Source: a virus
Taxonomy: Duplodnaviria; Heunggongvirae; Uroviricota; Caudoviricetes
Virus record (IMG/VR): IMGVR_UViG_3300035210_000190
DNA: 64,000 nt
Reading direction: 5' to 3' (one strand)
Shown: positions 43,858 through 64,000 of the stretch, piece by piece
Position numbering within the stretch: the stretch's first letter is position 1
Layout: each line of letters starts with the position of its first letter
Program-made: the position numbers and the translations under genes
Notes under the pieces: generated by a model
Database searches by the model: none
Told to the model about the DNA's origin: nothing
The model's input: only the letters and a program-made list of their open reading frames with translations

Positions 43858-44991
43858 ATGAAAAAAACAATAATACTTTCATTATCAGTCTTAGCAGTGA
43901 GTATTTCACAAGCGGCGTATATGGTAAAAGTTAACTTGGGTGATGAAGTCACCTTTTATCAGTGGACGGCTGAACAACCAATTTTAGGGCCGTGGGTTGA
44001 TACTGGACCCGTTTATGACTGCTCAAATTGGACACCAGACCCTTCAACTATTACTGTTAACATGCCTTTCACACAAACAGCAACTGATTGTAAACAGAAT
44101 CAAGAACAAACGGCTCAAGATAGGGAAGTTGATTCTGTTTCAGGTACTGTGCGTGATAGTGGCGATCCTTATGTCAATACTCAATATATTACAGTAGGCA
44201 ATACTCGTGCTGCAGTGGGCTTATTAGAATCGTGGGTTGCTGCATTACCTGAATTTACATCATGGGTTAATAATGGCGGCGTTACTAATTGTACAAATTG
44301 GTCACCAGCCACTTCAACAGTGACTATTAATCAAGATTTCACTCAAACGGCGACTGACTGTACACAAGCTCAAACTCGTTCCAAACAAGATCGTGAACAA
44401 GAAACAACGACTGGTTCTTTTAGAAATGTTGGTCCATCCGTAATTGAGTCACAAAACCTTGTGGCATCTTCTACTCGATTAGCGAAAGGAACAAAAGAAA
44501 CATGGGTATCCATTCCATCCACGTATACAGCTTGGGTTAATAATGGTGCTCTTAACAGTTGTTCTAACTGGTCGCCAGCAACATCCACTGTCCCTAATGG
44601 TCAAGGATTTACTCAGACGGCTACAGATTGTAAACAGCCACAAACTCGTTCTAGACAAGATCTTGAACAAGAGACAACAACGAACGTTACCAGAAATAAA
44701 GGTGTTGCTGTTACTGAGAACCAAAACATTACCACAACATCTACTAGAGCCGCTACTGGTACTAAAGTAATGACTGATTGTCGTTTTAATGAAGTAACAG
44801 ACAATGTAACGAGTTATGGCTCTATTGCTAGCTACTCATTCACATGGAATGGCGAGTATTTTTGGATGGGCGATGGTTCTCCAGTGTTAAATTATAATGG
44901 TTATAGATATACTATTTCATCCTTTGTAAAAACTGTATATTCTACTTATCTTCAAACTCATTACTATACTATATGTAGAACACCTCTATAA
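43858..44991 (+). CDS. Secreted protein with three 90-aa Cys/Trp repeats and a C-terminal aromatic-rich domain
   Basis: Signal peptide ending SQA|AYMVKVNL; Trp codons at 43963, 44233 and 44503 give an exact 270-nt period. Confidence 0.9.
   Translation: MKKTIILSLSVLAVSISQAAYMVKVNLGDEVTFYQWTAEQPILGPWVDTGPVYDCSNWTPDPSTITVNMPFTQTATDCKQNQEQTAQDREVDSVSGTVRDSGDPYVNTQYITVGNTRAAVGLLESWVAALPEFTSWVNNGGVTNCTNWSPATSTVTINQDFTQTATDCTQAQTRSKQDREQETTTGSFRNVGPSVIESQNLVASSTRLAKGTKETWVSIPSTYTAWVNNGALNSCSNWSPATSTVPNGQGFTQTATDCKQPQTRSRQDLEQETTTNVTRNKGVAVTENQNITTTSTRAATGTKVMTDCRFNEVTDNVTSYGSIASYSFTWNGEYFWMGDGSPVLNYNGYRYTISSFVKTVYSTYLQTHYYTICRTPL
43963..44772 (+). repeat. Three tandem 270-nt coding repeats
   Basis: W......WV..G....C.NW.P..ST......FTQTATDC.Q.Q....QD.E unit repeated three times. 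Confidence 0.9.
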
Positions 44992-46015: not shown

Positions 46016-46028
46016 TTGAAAAAAGTGC

Positions 46029-46273
46029 TTTACACAAAACCCAATTTTCGATATACTCATCCCACACAAACAGAAAGCAACGGAGAAACACCATGACACA
46101 AGCAGCACTGACCAAAGAACAAGAAATCGAACAAGCCTACGCTCAACTGCAGGCTCAAGAAAAACAAGCCAAAGAAGCAGCTTGGCGTCAAGCTGACAAA
46201 GAACTGGAACATCAGAAACCATCGTCGGTTTAAACTGACCACAAAATAAAAGCGGCCTTCGGGTCGCTTTTTT
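46029..46273 (+). repeat. Promoter-microprotein-terminator cassette, copy 1
   Basis: TTTACA-17-TATACT, CACACAAACAG leader, CGGAGAAACACCATG, TTCG terminator; homologous to 48790..49032 and 52225..52468. Confidence 0.9.
46093..46233 (+). CDS. 46-aa helical microprotein MTQAALTKEQEIEQAYAQLQAQEKQAKEAAWRQADKELEHQKPSSV
   Basis: GGAG RBS; conserved in three copies with mostly synonymous or conservative changes. Confidence 0.9.
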   Translation: MTQAALTKEQEIEQAYAQLQAQEKQAKEAAWRQADKELEHQKPSSV

Positions 46274-46328
46274 CATTTCTTTATTTTATTTATTTGATAT
46301 ACTATAATTAATTAACATTCAATCTTAT

Positions 46329-47216
46329 ATGAAAATAGTTCATAATAAAAATACAAAAGTTACGGAAAATGTCGATAAAATAAAATATGAGCATGAACTC
46401 ACCACATTGGAAAAATATGTAGAAATAACAGCAGAACTATCATCTATTGAAAATAAAAAAGAATTACTTACTTCTTGGCTTATTGTTTCATCCGCTATTT
46501 TAGGTGGAATGGTTTTTATAAATATTCTTTTAGCTTTTCTTACTAATAATAATTCGCTAGTGCTGGAAACATCTCTCTTGATTTATGGCTGTTTTTGTAT
46601 TCTGGCTTATACAGCTAAAGATTTCTTGTATCTTCTATTAGTTTTAAATATTACAAAATCAAGTCTAACAATGAAAGATAAATTGAATAAGATTGAAAAT
46701 CATCACCTTGTTTCTGGTCGATATTTGATTTTAACAAAAATTATTATTTTTATTTTAAGTTCACTATTATTATTTAGTTTTGTGGCTTATTTTACAACTT
46801 ATCTTACTCATCCACTATTATTATCTTTATTTATTTATTTATTATTACTTACGGTTATTAATGTTGTTAGAAAAAATATTCATTTTATTTTTCACGTCTC
46901 TTTTGCTGTTCTTATAGCTTTATTATGCGTTTATAATATGTTTTTACTCGCAGATCTAAGGCATGAAGAAGAAAATCAATATAATGAATCTCAAAATCAG
47001 TCTGATTTCGAAAACGATGATGAGAGTGTTCAAGAGATTATTGATAATGGGATGTCTGAAATCATGCAAGAAAGAGAGCGTATAAATGATTTGGTATATA
47101 AACCTGATCAACCAGAACCAGAACCAGAACCAAAAATAAAGATAGATGATACGATACAACGTGGACCTGTTGACCCTAATGAAAAGATTGATTTTGAGCA
47201 GTACATTAAAAAATAA
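46329..47216 (+). CDS. Multi-pass membrane protein with acidic Pro-Glu tail
   Basis: Several hydrophobic segments; PDQPEPEPEPK; AT-rich; terminator follows. Confidence 0.8.
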   Translation: MKIVHNKNTKVTENVDKIKYEHELTTLEKYVEITAELSSIENKKELLTSWLIVSSAILGGMVFINILLAFLTNNNSLVLETSLLIYGCFCILAYTAKDFLYLLLVLNITKSSLTMKDKLNKIENHHLVSGRYLILTKIIIFILSSLLLFSFVAYFTTYLTHPLLLSLFIYLLLLTVINVVRKNIHFIFHVSFAVLIALLCVYNMFLLADLRHEEENQYNESQNQSDFENDDESVQEIIDNGMSEIMQERERINDLVYKPDQPEPEPEPKIKIDDTIQRGPVDPNEKIDFEQYIKK

Positions 47217-47307
47217 AAACAAAATAAACATAAAGACCTTCGGGTCTTTTTTTCTTGCTTAAAATCTGTGGATTTGGTATAATAGTGTTCTAATTCAGGA
47301 GATTGTT

Positions 47308-48042
47308 ATGATTATCGACCCAGTTGTTAAAAGTGATTATTCCGACAATCTGTTGAAAATGTCGTACACGTTTTCGATGGAGGGCCATTCCTCGGTCATT
47401 TCCTTGCGTGAAGGTGATTTGATAGCCTTCATGAAGAAATACACACCAGAAATTGATGTGGATGCTTATCAGTCCGCTTCCTTGAAAAAAATGATCAATG
47501 ATCAGCGTTATCATCTGCAGGTGAAAATTCGCTACATGCTGGATAAGGTGATGGAACCTGTGTTTTGTGTCTCTCTTTACGACATGTCATTTTCTGATGA
47601 TGATTTTTACTCGGTTGATGGGTTTAAAGATTTCGTAGAAGCGAACGCATTTCCAGAATTCTTTGAAATGGCTGAAAGTATTGTTGACACCCTTTACAAA
47701 GATGGTGCTCACTACATCACCCGCCATATTGATTTTAAAGACCGCTTCTGGTCGTTTGAGACTGGTGCCGTGGTCGAGACTGAATACCACTCGTTTATGT
47801 TGAAAGAAAAGGCTATTGAAGCGATTGCTGCTCACATTCGTCAAGATGTTGAATTGAATGGTGAAGCAACCTTGCAGAAAGCTGAGAAATCCGCACAAGT
47901 GGATTACATGCCAATGTCGTTTGATAGCTTTAAAATTCAGTGGCCGATGGATTTAGAGCTTTTAAAACAAAGCGATTTGAGTTATACTACACTCAGTAAA
48001 TTTCTTCATAAATACAATCTTCCAAAAAAACGAGAGGACTAA
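47308..48042 (+). CDS. Hypothetical protein, paralog of 48044..48784
   Basis: V..L..GDLI.FM....PEID, F...LYD.SF and Q..K.FE patterns shared. Confidence 0.85.
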   Translation: MIIDPVVKSDYSDNLLKMSYTFSMEGHSSVISLREGDLIAFMKKYTPEIDVDAYQSASLKKMINDQRYHLQVKIRYMLDKVMEPVFCVSLYDMSFSDDDFYSVDGFKDFVEANAFPEFFEMAESIVDTLYKDGAHYITRHIDFKDRFWSFETGAVVETEYHSFMLKEKAIEAIAAHIRQDVELNGEATLQKAEKSAQVDYMPMSFDSFKIQWPMDLELLKQSDLSYTTLSKFLHKYNLPKKRED

Positions 48043-48043
48043 C

Positions 48044-48784
48044 ATGCACATCAGTAAACAGCTTCAAGTTCCTTATGTAGTCGAGATTGCTTCGCTTTGC
48101 TATTCGATTACATTGAACAACCGTTCTGTTGTGGTGCTGAAAGGTGCTGACCTTATTAACTTCATGGAGATCCATGTTCCAGAAATTGACATGGAGCCTT
48201 ATGCTGCTTTTGCGACAGAATACCTTAAACGCCGTCAGTCTAGCGAACTTCATAGTGCGTTGCGTTATGCCATTAACCCAATAACCGAAGAACATTTCTA
48301 TTCAGCGTTGTATGACCTGTCTTTTGATATGTCGGAACACAGTAGTGATGCCCCTCGTTTTGTTGAGTTCAAAGAAGAGAGCATGGATAGCTTCTTGGGA
48401 GCTGTATCGAGTCTTTATGAGAATGTAAAGAGCCAATCTAAACCGTGTTTCAAGCCTGTTGAACCTGTTTCTGGTGCGGTGGGTGGCAAATGGTCTTTTG
48501 ACAATGGCACTATGACATTGGCTGATGATGAATTGGTTATGACCCTGACTGAACAGACTGTTCAGCAAATGGCCGAGCATTTTAAGCGTGACTTCGTGGT
48601 GAATGGTCAAGAAAACTTGAAATCATTTGAAAATGGCTGCATTAAGCGTGATGAATATATTTCTTTGGAATATTTTCTTGAACATTTTGAGCAGGATGTC
48701 GAAAAATTCAAAGCTGATGGTATGACTTTTGAAGGTTTTGTTGACTTGATGACCAGTTATAAGATTTGCGATAAATATGAATAA
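48044..48784 (+). CDS. Hypothetical protein, paralog of 47308..48042
   Basis: GAGGA RBS; shared blocks. Confidence 0.85.
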   Translation: MHISKQLQVPYVVEIASLCYSITLNNRSVVVLKGADLINFMEIHVPEIDMEPYAAFATEYLKRRQSSELHSALRYAINPITEEHFYSALYDLSFDMSEHSSDAPRFVEFKEESMDSFLGAVSSLYENVKSQSKPCFKPVEPVSGAVGGKWSFDNGTMTLADDELVMTLTEQTVQQMAEHFKRDFVVNGQENLKSFENGCIKRDEYISLEYFLEHFEQDVEKFKADGMTFEGFVDLMTSYKICDKYE

Positions 48785-48789
48785 ATAGC

Positions 48790-49032
48790 TTTACACAAAA
48801 CTTGTTTTTAGCTATAATAACCCTACACAAACAGTAATATCGGAGAAACACCATGACCCAAGTAGTATTGACCAAAGAGCAAGAAGTCGAACAAGCCTAC
48901 GCTCAACTTCAGGCTCAGGAAAAACAAGTCAAAGAAGCTGCTTGGAAACAAGCGGAATCCGACCAAAACAAAGGCAAAGATCTGTAACAAGATTTAGCCC
49001 ACAAACTAAAAGCCCTTTCGAGGGCTTTTTTC
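48790..49032 (+). repeat. Promoter-microprotein-terminator cassette, copy 2
   Basis: TTTACA-17-TATAAT, TACACAAACAG leader, AAAAGCCC-TTTCGA-GGGCTTTTTT. Confidence 0.9.
48853..48987 (+). CDS. 44-aa helical microprotein MTQVVLTKEQEVEQAYAQLQAQEKQVKEAAWKQAESDQNKGKDL
   Basis: GGAG RBS; paralog of 46093 and 52288. Confidence 0.9.
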   Translation: MTQVVLTKEQEVEQAYAQLQAQEKQVKEAAWKQAESDQNKGKDL

Positions 49033-49111
49033 GTTTCCGATATTGATTAAAACTACCATTTTTTGATATATTATGCTATAATTGATGTTCATTTAAAGAG
49101 AGTGATTAAAA

Positions 49112-49393
49112 ATGACCACAAAAAAGACATTTATTGTTGTAGATAATGATGAGCATTTGGATGATTTTGATGAAAGATCTCTCAATTTTAACCATGAACG
49201 TGACGTTAATAAAGTGTCTGGTGTCATTTTACGGGATACTCGTAAAGCTCTTGGTTATCTGCCTGTATTCTTCTATGACCGTGAAGGTTACATCACAGGT
49301 TTTGAAGGTTGGGGTGGACATGAACGTGAAGTCGCCGTTGTTCCTGATGACGTGGACTTGTCAGAAACGTTTGTCATTCTTGAATCCGTTTAA
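49112..49393 (+). CDS. Hypothetical protein
   Basis: Own promoter, 93 aa. Confidence 0.75.
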   Translation: MTTKKTFIVVDNDEHLDDFDERSLNFNHERDVNKVSGVILRDTRKALGYLPVFFYDREGYITGFEGWGGHEREVAVVPDDVDLSETFVILESV

Positions 49394-49402
49394 GAATTGA
49401 AT

Positions 49403-49738
49403 ATGCCCAAGTATCGTTATAGTGCCAAAGCTGGTCAAGAACATGGTCAAGGTGGTCTTGTGGTCAAACTTTACACAAATGAACTCGATACAGATCCTGT
49501 TATCAGTGTAAAAGCCTTTGTCACTCAACTTGAACAAAAAGATGTCACGCCTATTTTGGATCTTAAATTCTCTATTTTGAAGGATTCAGATGACCCAAGT
49601 TATCCGATTATGCACAAGGAAGCTCTCATACTGGTCGAATCTATTGATAAAGCATTTCAAGCAGGGAAACACAACCCTACTTCGCTTATTATGTTAGTTC
49701 ATCCTGCATTAGTTAATGGTGTTGCTGGTGCTATTTAA
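49403..49738 (+). CDS. Hypothetical protein
   Basis: Co-oriented; terminator follows. Confidence 0.7.
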   Translation: MPKYRYSAKAGQEHGQGGLVVKLYTNELDTDPVISVKAFVTQLEQKDVTPILDLKFSILKDSDDPSYPIMHKEALILVESIDKAFQAGKHNPTSLIMLVHPALVNGVAGAI

Positions 49739-49838
49739 TTCTGTATTCTAATAAATGGCCTTCGGGCCTTTTTTTATGTTTATTGATAATCTTTCATTTA
49801 TTGTTATTCTAATAAGTATTAACATCTAAAAATAAACG

Positions 49839-50021
49839 ATGAAAACAAAAACATCCTTAATAATCATTGCGTCCATACTTTGTTTCTTTACAGCCGTCTA
49901 TTCTTACTTATATTTTACGGGTGAGTTTTCTCAGATAGGTGATTTTGATGACTGTAATTATCCTAGTTATTCAAGATATTCACACAGTTCAGACACTTTA
50001 TTTTGTCCATATAAATATTAA
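49839..50021 (+). CDS. Small single-TM protein with an extracytoplasmic Cys pair
   Basis: Hydrophobic N-terminus, CNYP...FCPY; AT-rich. Confidence 0.6.
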   Translation: MKTKTSLIIIASILCFFTAVYSYLYFTGEFSQIGDFDDCNYPSYSRYSHSSDTLFCPYKY

Positions 50022-50085
50022 ATTGAATTGCATTTTTTATCATTTATTGGTATAATCCTTTTATCTTATATAAAGGTAATAAACC

Positions 50086-50523
50086 ATGCCTAATCCAGAA
50101 TTGCGGTTCACCGGCTTTAAAGACCCTACCGGGCTTGATATTTTTGAAGGCGACTACCTTGTCATTAAACTCAGTGATCTATCATCAGAACAGATTGAAA
50201 AGCGTCAACTTGGTAAGTTGATGGAACAGTATGACATTCAATACATGCAGGCATATATTAAGCCTACTGGTCAACTTCGTTATGATATTGAAATTACCTT
50301 TGTTGATTCAAACCATCAAGCATTGACTGACGTAAAATATTATTTCTCTCGGGAAAAAGGTGACATGTCCGAAGAAGAGTTTTTTGCTGACTATGGAAAA
50401 TCGTCTTCTCTCGATGAAGTCTACACTGTTTTGGTTATGGCACAATTTCAAATGTTTAAAGGCATTATCAAAGACAACCTTTGGTTTAAAGTTCCCGCAC
50501 TGCATGTCATGGAGTCAAAATAA
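50086..50523 (+). CDS. Protein with YopX-like N-terminal motif
   Basis: FTGFKDPTGLDIFEGDYL resembles the YopX consensus xTGLKDKNGxEIxEGDIL. Confidence 0.6.
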   Translation: MPNPELRFTGFKDPTGLDIFEGDYLVIKLSDLSSEQIEKRQLGKLMEQYDIQYMQAYIKPTGQLRYDIEITFVDSNHQALTDVKYYFSREKGDMSEEEFFADYGKSSSLDEVYTVLVMAQFQMFKGIIKDNLWFKVPALHVMESK

Positions 50524-50987
50524 TGATTGAATCAGGTTTGTTCGATAATAATCAAAATCCTATTTGTCAGGGGCAGCACTTTCTGTTCACTATTCCTGAT
50601 GAAGTCTTGAATGGTAATTTCAGCACGTTTTATGGAAGCAACCTTGGGCAGCACATGCAGAAAATCGCTGTTCGCCATTACCTTATTTATGTTATTCCAA
50701 CGGAATTTCTGTCTATTCGTTTGATGACTTGCTTCCTGAAAGATGATATGACGCCTGTTACCATTGCCGAAGATGAAAAAACTTTTGAGCGTGACGCTGC
50801 CTATTATGCTCATGATGGCATTGACATTGATACTGTGGACAAAAATGAAGTGTGTGTTTCGTATGCCGAAGATGCGTTCAGTTTTGTGCGTTATCTTGTA
50901 GCAAAAGGATGGCTGTCTTATGAACCTAATCCAGCGGTTGACATGTCAAAAATTAAAGTTGGTTACAAACACTTCTATTCAGCATAA
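50523..50987 (+). CDS. Divergent paralog of 50086..50523
   Basis: ESGLFDNNQNPICQGQHF is a degenerate form of the same motif; overlapping start/stop. Confidence 0.6.
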   Translation: MIESGLFDNNQNPICQGQHFLFTIPDEVLNGNFSTFYGSNLGQHMQKIAVRHYLIYVIPTEFLSIRLMTCFLKDDMTPVTIAEDEKTFERDAAYYAHDGIDIDTVDKNEVCVSYAEDAFSFVRYLVAKGWLSYEPNPAVDMSKIKVGYKHFYSA

Positions 50988-51004
50988 ACACAGGAGATAA
51001 TTTA

Positions 51005-51259
51005 ATGCAACTTAGATATTTGCAAACGTATACAGATGGATGTAATCGTATTGAGCATGTTTTGGTTGCTCTTGATAAAATCACTCAGACAGAACCTGTG
51101 TTTCAAGAGCGAATTAACGTTTCTGTTAATAGGGCATTACAAATCAAACCTTTGCTTAAAGTCACACTGGTCGATGGTTCGAAACATAATGTGTCGGCTA
51201 AGGAGTTGTTAAGTTTGATCACATTTGAATCCATTGGTTGGCTAAAAGATGATGATTAG
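51005..51259 (+). CDS. Hypothetical protein
   Basis: AGGAG RBS. Confidence 0.75.
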   Translation: MQLRYLQTYTDGCNRIEHVLVALDKITQTEPVFQERINVSVNRALQIKPLLKVTLVDGSKHNVSAKELLSLITFESIGWLKDDD

Positions 51260-51332
51260 TTTCAAGTAAAGATTGCTTAAAAATCATTTTTTTGATAAAA
51301 TAGGCACATCAAATACGAATGGAACCTTCATC

Positions 51333-51761
51333 ATGACTACGAAACAAGAACACATCTGGACCAACGAAGACGTTGAAAGACTGCTGAGCGGTTTTAAAGA
51401 GTCTTTGGAGATGATGGATGGCTATTACAGCACCAGTGAGTCTGGTCAAGACCTTCGTGATCTTTACAACAGTTTTAAACAACGCCGGGAAGATTTGAAA
51501 CCTGTTGTTGTCTCCACTTTGCACAATGCTAAATGCAAAATCTGTGACAAAGAATTTATCCGTTCTGGTCATGGTAAGTTGTTGAATGCTACTGAGCAAA
51601 ATTCAGCCGTGATGAGCCATATCATGAATGTTCATAAAATTCAGGATTATGATACTCGCAAAAAGAACTTGCAAAAAGCCAGCGTAACCCGCGTAACCTA
51701 TGCTAATCGTAATGATTGCAATCGTGGGATTGTTCAAAGCCAACGTAAAGATAAACAGTAA
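51333..51761 (+). CDS. Protein with C2H2-like zinc finger
   Basis: CKICDKEF...HIMNVH; ATG 51333 preferred. Confidence 0.65.
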   Translation: MTTKQEHIWTNEDVERLLSGFKESLEMMDGYYSTSESGQDLRDLYNSFKQRREDLKPVVVSTLHNAKCKICDKEFIRSGHGKLLNATEQNSAVMSHIMNVHKIQDYDTRKKNLQKASVTRVTYANRNDCNRGIVQSQRKDKQ

Positions 51762-51794
51762 ATCAATCATTCAAGTTTAAATAGGTGATAAGCA

Positions 51795-52217
51795 ATGGAA
51801 GTTCGACTTCAGGAAAACATTGAGTTTAACACTGCTGCTGATTTCAATAAGGTGTTGACTAACTTTGAAACTTTGGCTGGCATGTTGGGTAAACGTATGC
51901 CACCGACGACGCTTTTCATGATTCCGTTCTATGCCATAAACGATGAAATTATTTTTGCGGCTACCATCATGGGTGAACGCGAATATATCCGTCATCAACG
52001 CGGCAATCGCAACTTCAAGAATAAAGAAGTGTTGGACTGCTATGCGATGGTTCATGACTTGTTGGAAAATGATTTGGATACCATTATCAAGAATCTTTCC
52101 AAGCCTGAATTAGTGGCTTATGCGTTGGACATCAGCACTGACATGATTACTGGTGTGGTAAAACTGCATAAAGATGGCGTCCCGTATGTGACAGTAACAC
52201 GACAGTTTTTAGGTTAA
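51795..52217 (+). CDS. Hypothetical protein
   Basis: AGGTG RBS. Confidence 0.8.
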   Translation: MEVRLQENIEFNTAADFNKVLTNFETLAGMLGKRMPPTTLFMIPFYAINDEIIFAATIMGEREYIRHQRGNRNFKNKEVLDCYAMVHDLLENDLDTIIKNLSKPELVAYALDISTDMITGVVKLHKDGVPYVTVTRQFLG

Positions 52218-52224
52218 AAAAAGC

Positions 52225-52468
52225 TTTACAGATAATCCACTTTTAGATATAATAACCCCACACAAACAGCAATATCGGAGAAATACCATGACCCAAGCTA
52301 CTATGACCAAACAACAACAAATTGACGCTGCTTATGCTGAGGCGAAAGCTCAGGAGCAAAAAGATAAGGACGCCGCATGGGAACGTGCGGAATCGGAACT
52401 GAACAAAGGCAAAGACCTGTAACACAGGTTAAGCCAACAAACAAAAAGCCCTTTCGAGGGCTTTTTTC
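52225..52468 (+). repeat. Promoter-microprotein-terminator cassette, copy 3
   Basis: TTTACA-17-TATAAT, CACACAAACAG leader; terminator identical to copy 2. Confidence 0.9.
52288..52422 (+). CDS. 44-aa helical microprotein MTQATMTKQQQIDAAYAEAKAQEQKDKDAAWERAESELNKGKDL
   Basis: GGAG RBS; paralog of 46093 and 48853. Confidence 0.9.
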   Translation: MTQATMTKQQQIDAAYAEAKAQEQKDKDAAWERAESELNKGKDL

Positions 52469-52540
52469 ATGTCTTCATTTTTTATATTTACAAAATTTAT
52501 GTCTTCTGCTATAATCAGATTTCTATTAAAGGTGCCCATT

Positions 52541-62905: not shown

Positions 62906-63101
62906 ATTTATCTTTTTTCGCTAAATCGTCTAAATACCTATTCTGGTGGATTTACAAGACTGGACTTTTTTGCTAAAATAGAGGATCAAATTTCAGTTAT
63001 GATATTTTTGAAAAAACTTAGAAATGATTGAAAAAAATCTTGTCATTGATTGACTTCGTTGGTATAATTACCCCACACAAACAGATACGGAGTTACACAA
63101 G

Positions 63102-63452
63102 ATGAGCACTTCCCAAGTAGCAGTTGCAAACGCCGAACGCACTACCGAAGAATTGACCGAAGGTCTTGAAAAGCTTCGTCAGCTCATGATTGCGGACTAT
63201 GATCGCACAGGCTTCAACATGGGGTATGACATTGAGTTTGAATTTGGCTCGAAATACATCCGGGTTATTCACAATAATGGCCGTGGTAGCCGTAGCTGTT
63301 CAGGTTTTGTATGCTGCGACCGTAACCACAAAAAGTTCGAATTTGGTGCCTTGCTGAAAGACGCGGGTTGGAAAGCTCCTGCAATGAACAAAGCTCGCGG
63401 TAGTGTGTTTGCACTCGAAGGCAAAACCATTGCATGGACTGGCATCCAATAA
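63102..63452 (+). CDS. Conserved phage-type protein (GSKY.R...AGWKAPA..RG), paralog of 63672..64000
   Basis: TTGTCA-17-TATAAT promoter, CACACAAACAG leader, GGAG RBS, terminator follows. Confidence 0.85.
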   Translation: MSTSQVAVANAERTTEELTEGLEKLRQLMIADYDRTGFNMGYDIEFEFGSKYIRVIHNNGRGSRSCSGFVCCDRNHKKFEFGALLKDAGWKAPAMNKARGSVFALEGKTIAWTGIQ

Positions 63453-63671
63453 CACTGACCACAGAAAAGGGGCTTCGGCCCTTTTTTTTTATCTTTTATT
63501 TTCATTAATTGGATCTGATGGCTTGCGTGGCTCTCTTTTTTTATGATAAAATGAAGGATCTTTTCTAAATATCCGTTCATAAAATATTTTAAAATTAGGA
63601 CGAATAATGTTGTTTTTGATGATTTACTTTGTTATAATTATCACACACAAAGAAAGATGGAGTTACCAGCG

Positions 63672-64000
63672 ATGACCACTTCCCAAGCCGTTGCACAAGT
63701 AGTTACTCACGCTGACACTGAGAACAAAACTGTAGAAGATCTTCTTGACGCAATGGAAAATCTTCGTCAGATGATGGTAGAAAACTACGGTGTGCAATCA
63801 GGTCGGAATGAATATGATGTCTATTTCGAAGCCGGTTCCAAATATACCCGCCTCTACTACAAAACCAGTTGCCAACGTATGTGCCTTGGCTTTATCGTAA
63901 ACACCAAAAACCACAAGAAGTTCCCATTTGGCACGCTGTTGATGTCAGCCGGTTGGAAAGCACCAGCAGTCAACAAGGGCCGTGGAAACATCTTCAATCT
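63672..64000 (+). CDS. Paralog of 63102..63452, 3'-truncated by the window end
   Basis: MTTSQAVAQ...AGSKYTRL...KKFPFGTLLMSAGWKAPAVNKGRGNIFN; absent from the ORF track because no stop is in the window. Confidence 0.85.
   Translation, partial: MTTSQAVAQVVTHADTENKTVEDLLDAMENLRQMMVENYGVQSGRNEYDVYFEAGSKYTRLYYKTSCQRMCLGFIVNTKNHKKFPFGTLLMSAGWKAPAVNKGRGNIFN

Follow-up and report, generated by a model that had tools for sequence, protein, structure and literature searches.

Three gene-converting cassettes with their own promoters and terminators encode a probable microprotein family in a putative large T4-related phage

The 64,000-nt stretch taken from the caudoviricete virus record IMGVR_UViG_3300035210_000190 (hereinafter the window) carries three dispersed copies of a small cassette, each of which contains a promoter, a leader, an open reading frame (ORF) for a microprotein of 44 or 46 residues, and a terminator. 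We describe here these cassettes and their counterparts in related metagenomic loci; all counts of copies cover the window and the stretches of the relatives that were examined. A repeat search of the window recovered the cassettes as a single direct-repeat family of three 249-nt copies, located at 46023-46271, 48783-49031 and 52218-52466. Their ungapped identity ranges from 63 to 71% and their mean column identity in a MAFFT alignment is 83%, while blastn comparisons of one cassette with another return E values of about 1e-45 to 1e-70. The order of elements is the same in every cassette, with an A-tract followed in turn by a -35/-10 sigma-70 promoter, a CA-rich leader, a GGAG ribosome-binding site, the ORF and a terminator with a UUCG loop (Table 1). 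A sequence-only reading of this DNA had proposed three promoter-microprotein-terminator units with -35 elements at 46029, 48790 and 52225, and we found all the parts that it named.

The cassette promoters combine TTTACA with TATACT or TATAAT across a 17-nt spacer, score 10-11 out of 12, and have an upstream A-tract in all three copies. The leader element CACACAAACAG is identical in copies 1 and 3, and copy 2 has TACACAAACAG, with T at the first base. The distance from the GGAG to the ATG is 7 nt in each cassette, and the coding share is 141 or 135 of about 249 nt. The terminators, located at 46248-46271, 49008-49029 and 52443-52466 (Table 1 gives slightly longer spans), consist of a G+C stem closed by a UUCG loop and followed by a run of U; the next gene's promoter begins about 20-45 nt beyond each of them. 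The same leader was also found, as the sequence-only reading had noted, ahead of the gene at 63102, where CACACAAACAG occupies 63074-63084; a variant of it precedes the paralogue of that gene at 63657, and the leaders differ at about 45 further promoter-like sites on the + strand of the window. The ribosome-binding site of all five genes behind the common leader is GGAG, the motif at which the endoribonuclease RegB cleaves early mRNAs of T4 (PMC2988021). The micro-ORFs had been described as invisible to the ORF track, and they are indeed missed in that listing, but a length cut-off alone is the cause, given that gene callers applied to the public assemblies of the relatives do call them.

Table 1. 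Coordinates of the cassette elements in the window, of the related promoter-leader near its end, and of the variable gene slots beside the cassettes.
Feature	Position	Strand	Details
Cassette 1 promoter	46017-46057	+	A-tract; -35 TTTACA 46029-46034; 17-nt spacer; -10 TATACT 46052-46057
Cassette 1 leader	46058-46092	+	CACACAAACAG 46063-46073; GGAG 46082-46085
Micro-ORF copy 1 (P0001)	46093-46233	+	46 aa; tail type ADKELEHQKPSSV
Cassette 1 intrinsic terminator	46248-46277	+	UUCG loop and U run
Extended -10 promoter of ORF 46329	within about 20 nt of cassette 1 terminator	+	
Cassette 2 promoter	48783-48818	+	-35 TTTACA 48790-48795; -10 TATAAT 48813-48818
Cassette 2 leader	48819-48852	+	TACACAAACAG 48824-48834; GGAG 48842-48845
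Micro-ORF copy 2 (P0002)	48853-48987	+	44 aa; tail type AESDQNKGKDL
Cassette 2 terminator	49008-49035	+	next promoter at 49043-49074
Cassette 3 promoter	52218-52253	+	-35 TTTACA 52225-52230; -10 TATAAT 52248-52253
Cassette 3 leader	52254-52287	+	CACACAAACAG 52259-52269; GGAG 52277-52280
Micro-ORF copy 3 (P0003)	52288-52422	+	44 aa
Cassette 3 terminator	52443-52472	+	next promoter (TTTACA, 17 nt, TATAAT) at 52487-52515
Promoter, leader (CACACAAACAG 63074-63084) and GGAG	63040-63101	+	precedes unrelated 116-aa gene 63102-63452
Slot	upstream of copy 1		377-aa and 236-aa genes, 553-aa gene, or both kinds
Slot	directly downstream of copy 1		295-aa, 242-aa, 258-aa and 325-aa, both, or none
Slot	directly downstream of copy 3		DUF6900 gene; 59-aa membrane gene with acetyltransferase; 201-aa gene; or 59-aa gene and DUF6900 gene

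Several features of the micro-ORF mark it as a protein-coding gene. For the analysis of selection we assembled 40 ORFs from the window and from the loci L001-L019, comprising 24 distinct DNA versions, in all 24 of which the frame is open. Over the first 39 codons the variable columns number 21, 18 and 33 at codon positions 1, 2 and 3, respectively, and the pooled ratio of nonsynonymous to synonymous differences per site (pN/pS) is 0.33 in the ORF frame (pS 0.53, pN 0.18), whereas four other frames give 1.0-2.0 and the antisense frame with common wobble positions gives 0.48. In an alignment of 15 cassettes the invariant columns at codon positions 1, 2 and 3 are 13, 21 and 6 of 32. Likewise, a codon-usage model trained on 18 long genes of the window yields log-odds of +0.54 to +0.57 bits per codon in the ORF frame, with every other frame scoring below +0.17 and mostly negative. 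The low pN/pS of the ORF frame and the concentration of changes at third positions bear out the earlier suggestion that conservation is at the protein level, with changes of codon.

This conservation extends well beyond the immediate relatives. Five clusters in a collection of 5.8 billion proteins are 80-98% identical to copy 2, the micro-ORFs having been called there by gene callers, and a profile search of all 1.84 billion representative proteins produced 12 matches, nearly all of them 36-48 aa long, among which are two upstream-extended calls and one low-complexity 643-aa protein. The family shares a block of the form T-[KR]-E-Q-E-I-[ED]-x-A-[YW]-A-Q, followed by K..AW..A, and A15 and W31 are invariant across 22 family sequences. 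Between distant pairs the synonymous sites are saturated (pS 0.5-0.9) and pN is 0.28-0.47; the flanking DNA of the distant members cannot be aligned, yet a promoter-like site, a ribosome-binding site and a terminator accompany each ORF. An identical 47-aa member is found at L020:9600-9770 and L022:9370-9535 behind unrelated promoters and leaders in contigs that are otherwise near-identical, a difference which, judged from the sequences, looks like replacement of the promoter at the 5' edge of the gene.

The contexts in which the third copy occurs are also informative in this regard. In L007, L008 and L012 it is cut to 36-41 codons and its stop codon overlaps the ATG of a gene for a 196-201-aa protein, with the sequences ATGTTTAA and ATGATTGA exemplifying this translational coupling to the downstream gene. 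In L001, L009 and L010 a strongly hydrophobic ORF of 59 aa (L001:13908-14087, L009:10182-10361, L010:8938), which is absent from the window and has a weak NfeD-membrane match, is inserted between the third micro-ORF and a common terminator, resulting in a two-gene operon. The 196-201-aa and 59-aa genes that are thus tied to copy 3 recovered no informative family in our searches. Such coupled and operonic arrangements are sensible only for a frame that is translated, and we consider it very probable, from this body of sequence evidence, that the micro-ORFs constitute a real family of translated early genes.

AlphaFold2, provided with an alignment of 22 sequences, models the microprotein as a single helix spanning residues 2-42 (pLDDT 82.7). 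The net charge of the copy 2 peptide, counted from its sequence, is about -2, and the prediction of a homodimer received a score of 0.02, which speaks neither for nor against self-association. The proteins end in one of two tail types: ADKEL.HQ..SV is carried by copy 1 in all relatives and by the distant P0011, P0012, P0016 and P0017, and AE..QNKGKDL by copies 2 and 3 and by the distant P0015 and P0020. As both types recur in distant clades, they represent two ancient isoforms. A frameshift linking the two tails was considered and discarded, the match in the DNA alignment being too weak. Also set aside as spurious was the sole PDB match below E 0.001, which covers a 12-residue stretch of a designed TIM barrel.

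We then compared the copies with each other and across genomes. All relatives that cover the region have three copies at syntenic positions, and between the window and L001 the cassettes are 83-93% identical and the flanking genes about 78-83%. Third copies in L002 and L003 that had been taken for deletions ending within the cassette proved to be scaffold gaps of N. Copy 2 of the window is a mosaic, in that its codons 1-33 resemble copy 1 and its tail and terminator resemble copy 3. More generally, the tail follows genomic position, whereas the central 21 codons form two classes that do not: the class typical of copy 3 is carried by copy 2 of L007 and by all copies of L009, and copies 2 and 3 of L010 are 92% alike in the central segment and at most 78% alike to any other copy. 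Maximum chi-square breakpoint tests with permutation were significant for 7 of 8 triplets (p = 0.0002-0.024), including copy 2 of the window against copies 1 and 3 (chi-square 34.9, p = 0.0002), the copies of L009 and L010 (p <=0.0012) and copy 2 of L007 (p = 0.024). On the basis of these segmental identities and breakpoint tests we conclude that the dispersed copies exchange segments by gene conversion.

A map of the genes in eight genomes further showed that gene content varies most in three multi-allelic slots directly adjoining copies 1 and 3 (Table 1), with breakpoints lying either at the -35 of the cassette or right behind the -10 of the promoter that follows it. The block made up of the 244-aa gene, the 246-aa gene and copy 2 is constant across the mapped genomes. 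We also considered and rejected differences in gene content between cassettes 2 and 3, where the region is syntenic at about 78% identity with small indels only and the differences in size reflect split genes in the window. The proposal in the sequence-only reading that the cassettes reshuffle their neighbors thus holds with respect to gene conversion and adjacent hot spots of indels, but not with respect to the intervening genes, which are not rearranged in the roughly eight relatives whose gene content was compared.

The wider setting of the cassettes is poor in recognizable genes. The window has a G+C content of 35%, two tRNA genes, dozens of sigma-70-type promoters, and twice as many terminators as expected from shuffled sequence. 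Nearly all of its proteins, those flanking the cassettes included, have no Pfam or PHROG family; one matches virion-protein PHROGs and a protein of a T4-like cyanophage. Nothing resembling the region was found in 50,697 GenBank phage records, against which three family members gave nothing or one chance-level match in a search limited by the low-complexity filter and the shortness of the queries, and a scan of IMG/VR returned no relative. The relatives are metagenome assemblies, including one scaffold of 208,584 bp. The distant carriers of the family are placed in early regions of T4 type, beside genes for thymidine kinase, PTH2 and Phage_T4_Y04K, and the identity of this thymidine kinase to the enzymes of cultured T4-like phages does not exceed 45%. 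In light of the content of the window, its relatives, and the genes neighboring the distant members, we read this setting as a putative early, ORFan-rich hyperplastic region in an uncultured clade of large T4-related phages, and judging from these searches the microprotein family is new and apparently restricted to that clade. A Lar-like gene, which scores below Pfam's threshold, is present in the neighborhood as an association only. Separately, syntenic copies of the region occur in L009 (Ga0308158_10000001, 1,859,102 bp) and L010 (Ga0308157_10000028, 677,834 bp), contigs far longer than the 208-kb scaffold, which could be products of assembly concatenation, a much larger element, or an integration in a cell genome.

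The closest parallel to this organization is offered by T4-type phages, whose promoter-early stem-loop (PeSL) elements, found together with ORFan cassettes, have a described role in shuffling (Arbiol et al. 2010, PMC2839356; Comeau et al. 2014, PMC4122927). In either system an A/T-rich stretch precedes strong early promoters of the sigma-70 type, a stem-loop terminator stands directly ahead of the next promoter, and the elements are located in an ORFan-rich hyperplastic region, where they coincide with the breakpoints of indels and replacements among related phages; the breakpoints at the cassette edges match the behavior described in RB49/phi1 and other T4-like phages. The comparison with the shuffling cassettes of T4-type phages drawn in the sequence-only reading is therefore apt: in its behavior the region resembles a hyperplastic region of T4 type, and its junctions are PeSL-like (PMC2839356). 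A PeSL, however, is a composite of about 100 bp that lies between genes and is non-coding, whereas a conserved protein-coding gene takes up over half of the cassette's length of about 249 nt and keeps the promoter of the unit apart from its terminator; in addition, the unit is triplicated and homogenized by gene conversion. Because it is not non-coding and a gene separates its promoter from its terminator, the cassette is not itself a PeSL; it is an ORFan gene bounded by PeSL-like junctions, in three gene-converting copies. The promoters for their part appear to match the UP/-35/-10 design of T4-type early promoters, which are described as UP/-35/TGn/-10 (PMC2988021). The cassettes also resemble the morons of lambdoid phages (PMC2839356) in being self-contained units with their own promoter and terminator among other genes. 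Morons, however, are defined by their presence or absence among related phages, whereas each of the relatives examined has the cassettes in these same three places, and they are paralogous to one another. Lambda CIII, lambda Kil and T7 Gp2 are small early phage effectors that bind host proteins. With effectors of this kind, such as AsiA of T4 (PMC2988021) and those covered by a review (PMC11323111), the microprotein shares small size, an early-type promoter, a predicted helical structure and the lack of an enzymatic domain, but neither sequence nor profile comparison relates it to any of them, and the resemblance is one of class only.

Taken as a whole, we propose that the cassettes are three separately transcribed paralogous genes for a single-helix protein of 44-46 residues, a statement which we judge fairly likely to hold in its entirety, that is, with the early expression, host binding and origin that follow. 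Upon infection the host RNA polymerase would fire the cassette promoters immediately, and three strong promoters together with an unstructured leader would provide a high output of the peptide. The peptide, a helix that would fold upon contact with its partner, might then bind a host component, either for takeover or for counter-defence, although we give this host-directed role somewhat less than an even chance. The triplication may have arisen through cassette duplication of the PeSL type, and the roughly 250 bp of homology supplied by the copies would maintain the recombinogenic character of the region.

A number of results weigh against this proposal. The microprotein has no family, the best Pfam match having an E value of 0.37, the best PHROG (v4) match 0.083 and PADLOC none, and the Protein Atlas gives no usable match; the inhibitory, host-takeover or anti-defence function attributed to it in the sequence-only reading accordingly lacks the backing of a family match. 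The TGn motif typical of T4 early promoters is absent from all three cassette promoters. A single conserved face of the helix was sought and rejected (permutation p = 0.76), residues 7-18 being conserved all round, and a simple one-sided binding surface is hence not indicated. No deletion, duplication or swap between cassettes was seen in about eight relatives, so that modular shuffling is backed as gene conversion and adjacent hot spots and no further. Finally, copy 1 and copies 2 and 3 carry two different, anciently conserved tails, which argue for diversified paralogues over pure dosage and weaken the simple amplification of dosage that had been put forward.

This last point leads to the alternative that survives best, according to which the three copies are paralogues that have diversified in function, their isoforms serving different partners or host variants, rather than a dosage device. 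The strict association of tail type with genomic position in every relative and the presence of both tails in distant clades speak for it, but gene conversion keeps the central 33 codons of the copies alike and the third copy is the most labile in its tail and context. We view this explanation as possible but on the doubtful side; moreover, it refines the proposal of three paralogous early genes rather than excluding it. A bolder conjecture, which we deem unlikely, would see in the unit a self-propagating and self-homogenizing platform of giant T4-related phages, whose roughly 250 bp of homology and strong early promoter would serve as an integron-type landing and expression site. Accessory genes would be taken up as cargo between micro-ORF and terminator or immediately behind the latter, as might be exemplified by the 59-aa, 201-aa and DUF6900 genes after copy 3, and the abundant helix would itself be an immediate-early effector directed at a host target or defence.

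Conversely, the repeats could be mainly regulatory or recombination modules akin to PeSLs, in which the ORF is an incidental or decaying spacer with a functionless product. Conservation of the promoter and leader equals or exceeds that of the ORF (in the 15 cassettes 18 of the 35 leader columns do not vary), the same promoter-leader precedes an unrelated gene at 63102, and variable gene slots adjoin the cassettes. However, purifying selection is specific to the ORF frame, codon usage is gene-like, and the ORF stays open in 24 distinct versions as well as in distant relatives with unalignable flanks and is reused in operons with start/stop overlap, making this explanation very improbable. Comparably remote, in our estimation, is the idea that the micro-ORF is a cis-acting leader ORF, whose translation itself tunes read-through of the terminator or expression of the downstream gene. 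It could draw on the overlap of the third copy with the start of the 196-201-aa gene in L007, L008 and L012 and on its position before the 59-aa membrane-protein gene, ahead of the common terminator, in L001, L009 and L010, but all three copies of the window and most of those in the relatives end in a terminator of their own, a separate promoter serves the downstream gene, the G+C stem begins at least 18 nt past the stop codon and thus outside the reach of a terminating ribosome, and the amino acid sequence, both tail types included, is conserved across contexts.

That transcripts of roughly 215 nt act as small RNAs, with conservation reflecting RNA structure or base-pairing, is scarcely credible. 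Cassette 2, folded as a single sequence, does exceed its shuffles in stability (z = -3.85), but the terminator hairpin contributes much of this energy. For 15 cassette transcripts RNAalifold arrives at -13.3 kcal/mol (covariation term -0.95) and places within the ORF only two short local hairpins, with no helix across it. In addition, no Rfam family matched, variation piles up at third codon positions, and in distant members the peptide is retained while the nucleotide sequence is not. The RNA-structure explanation, which the sequence-only reading had itself named as one that could overturn it, thus fails, and from the folding and codon data we attribute the conservation to the peptide together with DNA or RNA constraint on the promoter, leader and terminator, and not to an RNA fold.

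The family adds to the poorly charted microproteins of phages a well-supported small protein that is new to Pfam and PHROGs, and its clean anatomy, with promoter, leader, ribosome-binding site and terminator, makes it easy to test. Large phages are already known to contain small early ORFans, paralogous families and promoter/terminator junctions, and the architecture is of this known sort, the family being what is new to the curated libraries. The cassettes also provide a natural case of a hyperplastic region where the unit that is repeated and gene-converted is a coding ORFan cassette and not just a non-coding PeSL. Should the microprotein prove to be an effector of host takeover or counter-defence, its two ancient isoforms and triple copies would bear on the question of dosage versus diversification of targets among early phage genes.

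Some further observations concern genes elsewhere in the window. The gene at 63102-63452 and the one from 63657 onward are tandem paralogues (region 63011-64000) that have in common a promoter of the cassette type and a leader like CACACAAACAG, and they have weak matches to DUF7717 and phrog_3274. Upstream of the cassettes, a 377-aa ORF at 43858-44991 contains three tandem repeats of 270 nt (43986, 44256 and 44526), and an exact CACACAAACAG occurs at 44070 inside its coding sequence with no promoter ahead of it, an 11-mer match that is not expected by chance. The genes for the 244-aa and 246-aa proteins, adjacent paralogues at 47308-48784, are 24% identical to each other. For this family, a model with a pLDDT of 88.7 was obtained; it has no Pfam or PHROG family, its best Foldseek E value is 0.64, and VIA-align gave a best Z of 6.6 to generic helical bundles and no significant structural relative. 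Members of the same family also adjoin the micro-ORF in distant relatives (L023:1935-3406 and L027:1727-2458), with an identity of 27-35%.

Between cassettes 2 and 3 two genes of the window are split. The ORFs at 49112-49393 (93 aa) and 49397-49738 (113 aa) lie in the same frame with a stop codon between them and correspond to one gene of 215-217 aa in L001 and L007; the split form of 49112-49738 is also present in L018, L012 and L013, and represents either an inherited split or a read-through site. The ORFs at 50086-50523 (145 aa) and 50523-50987 (154 aa) are in different frames with an ATGA overlap and correspond to one gene of 299-300 aa in L001, L007 and L012, the frameshift split of 50086-50987 being common to the window and L018.

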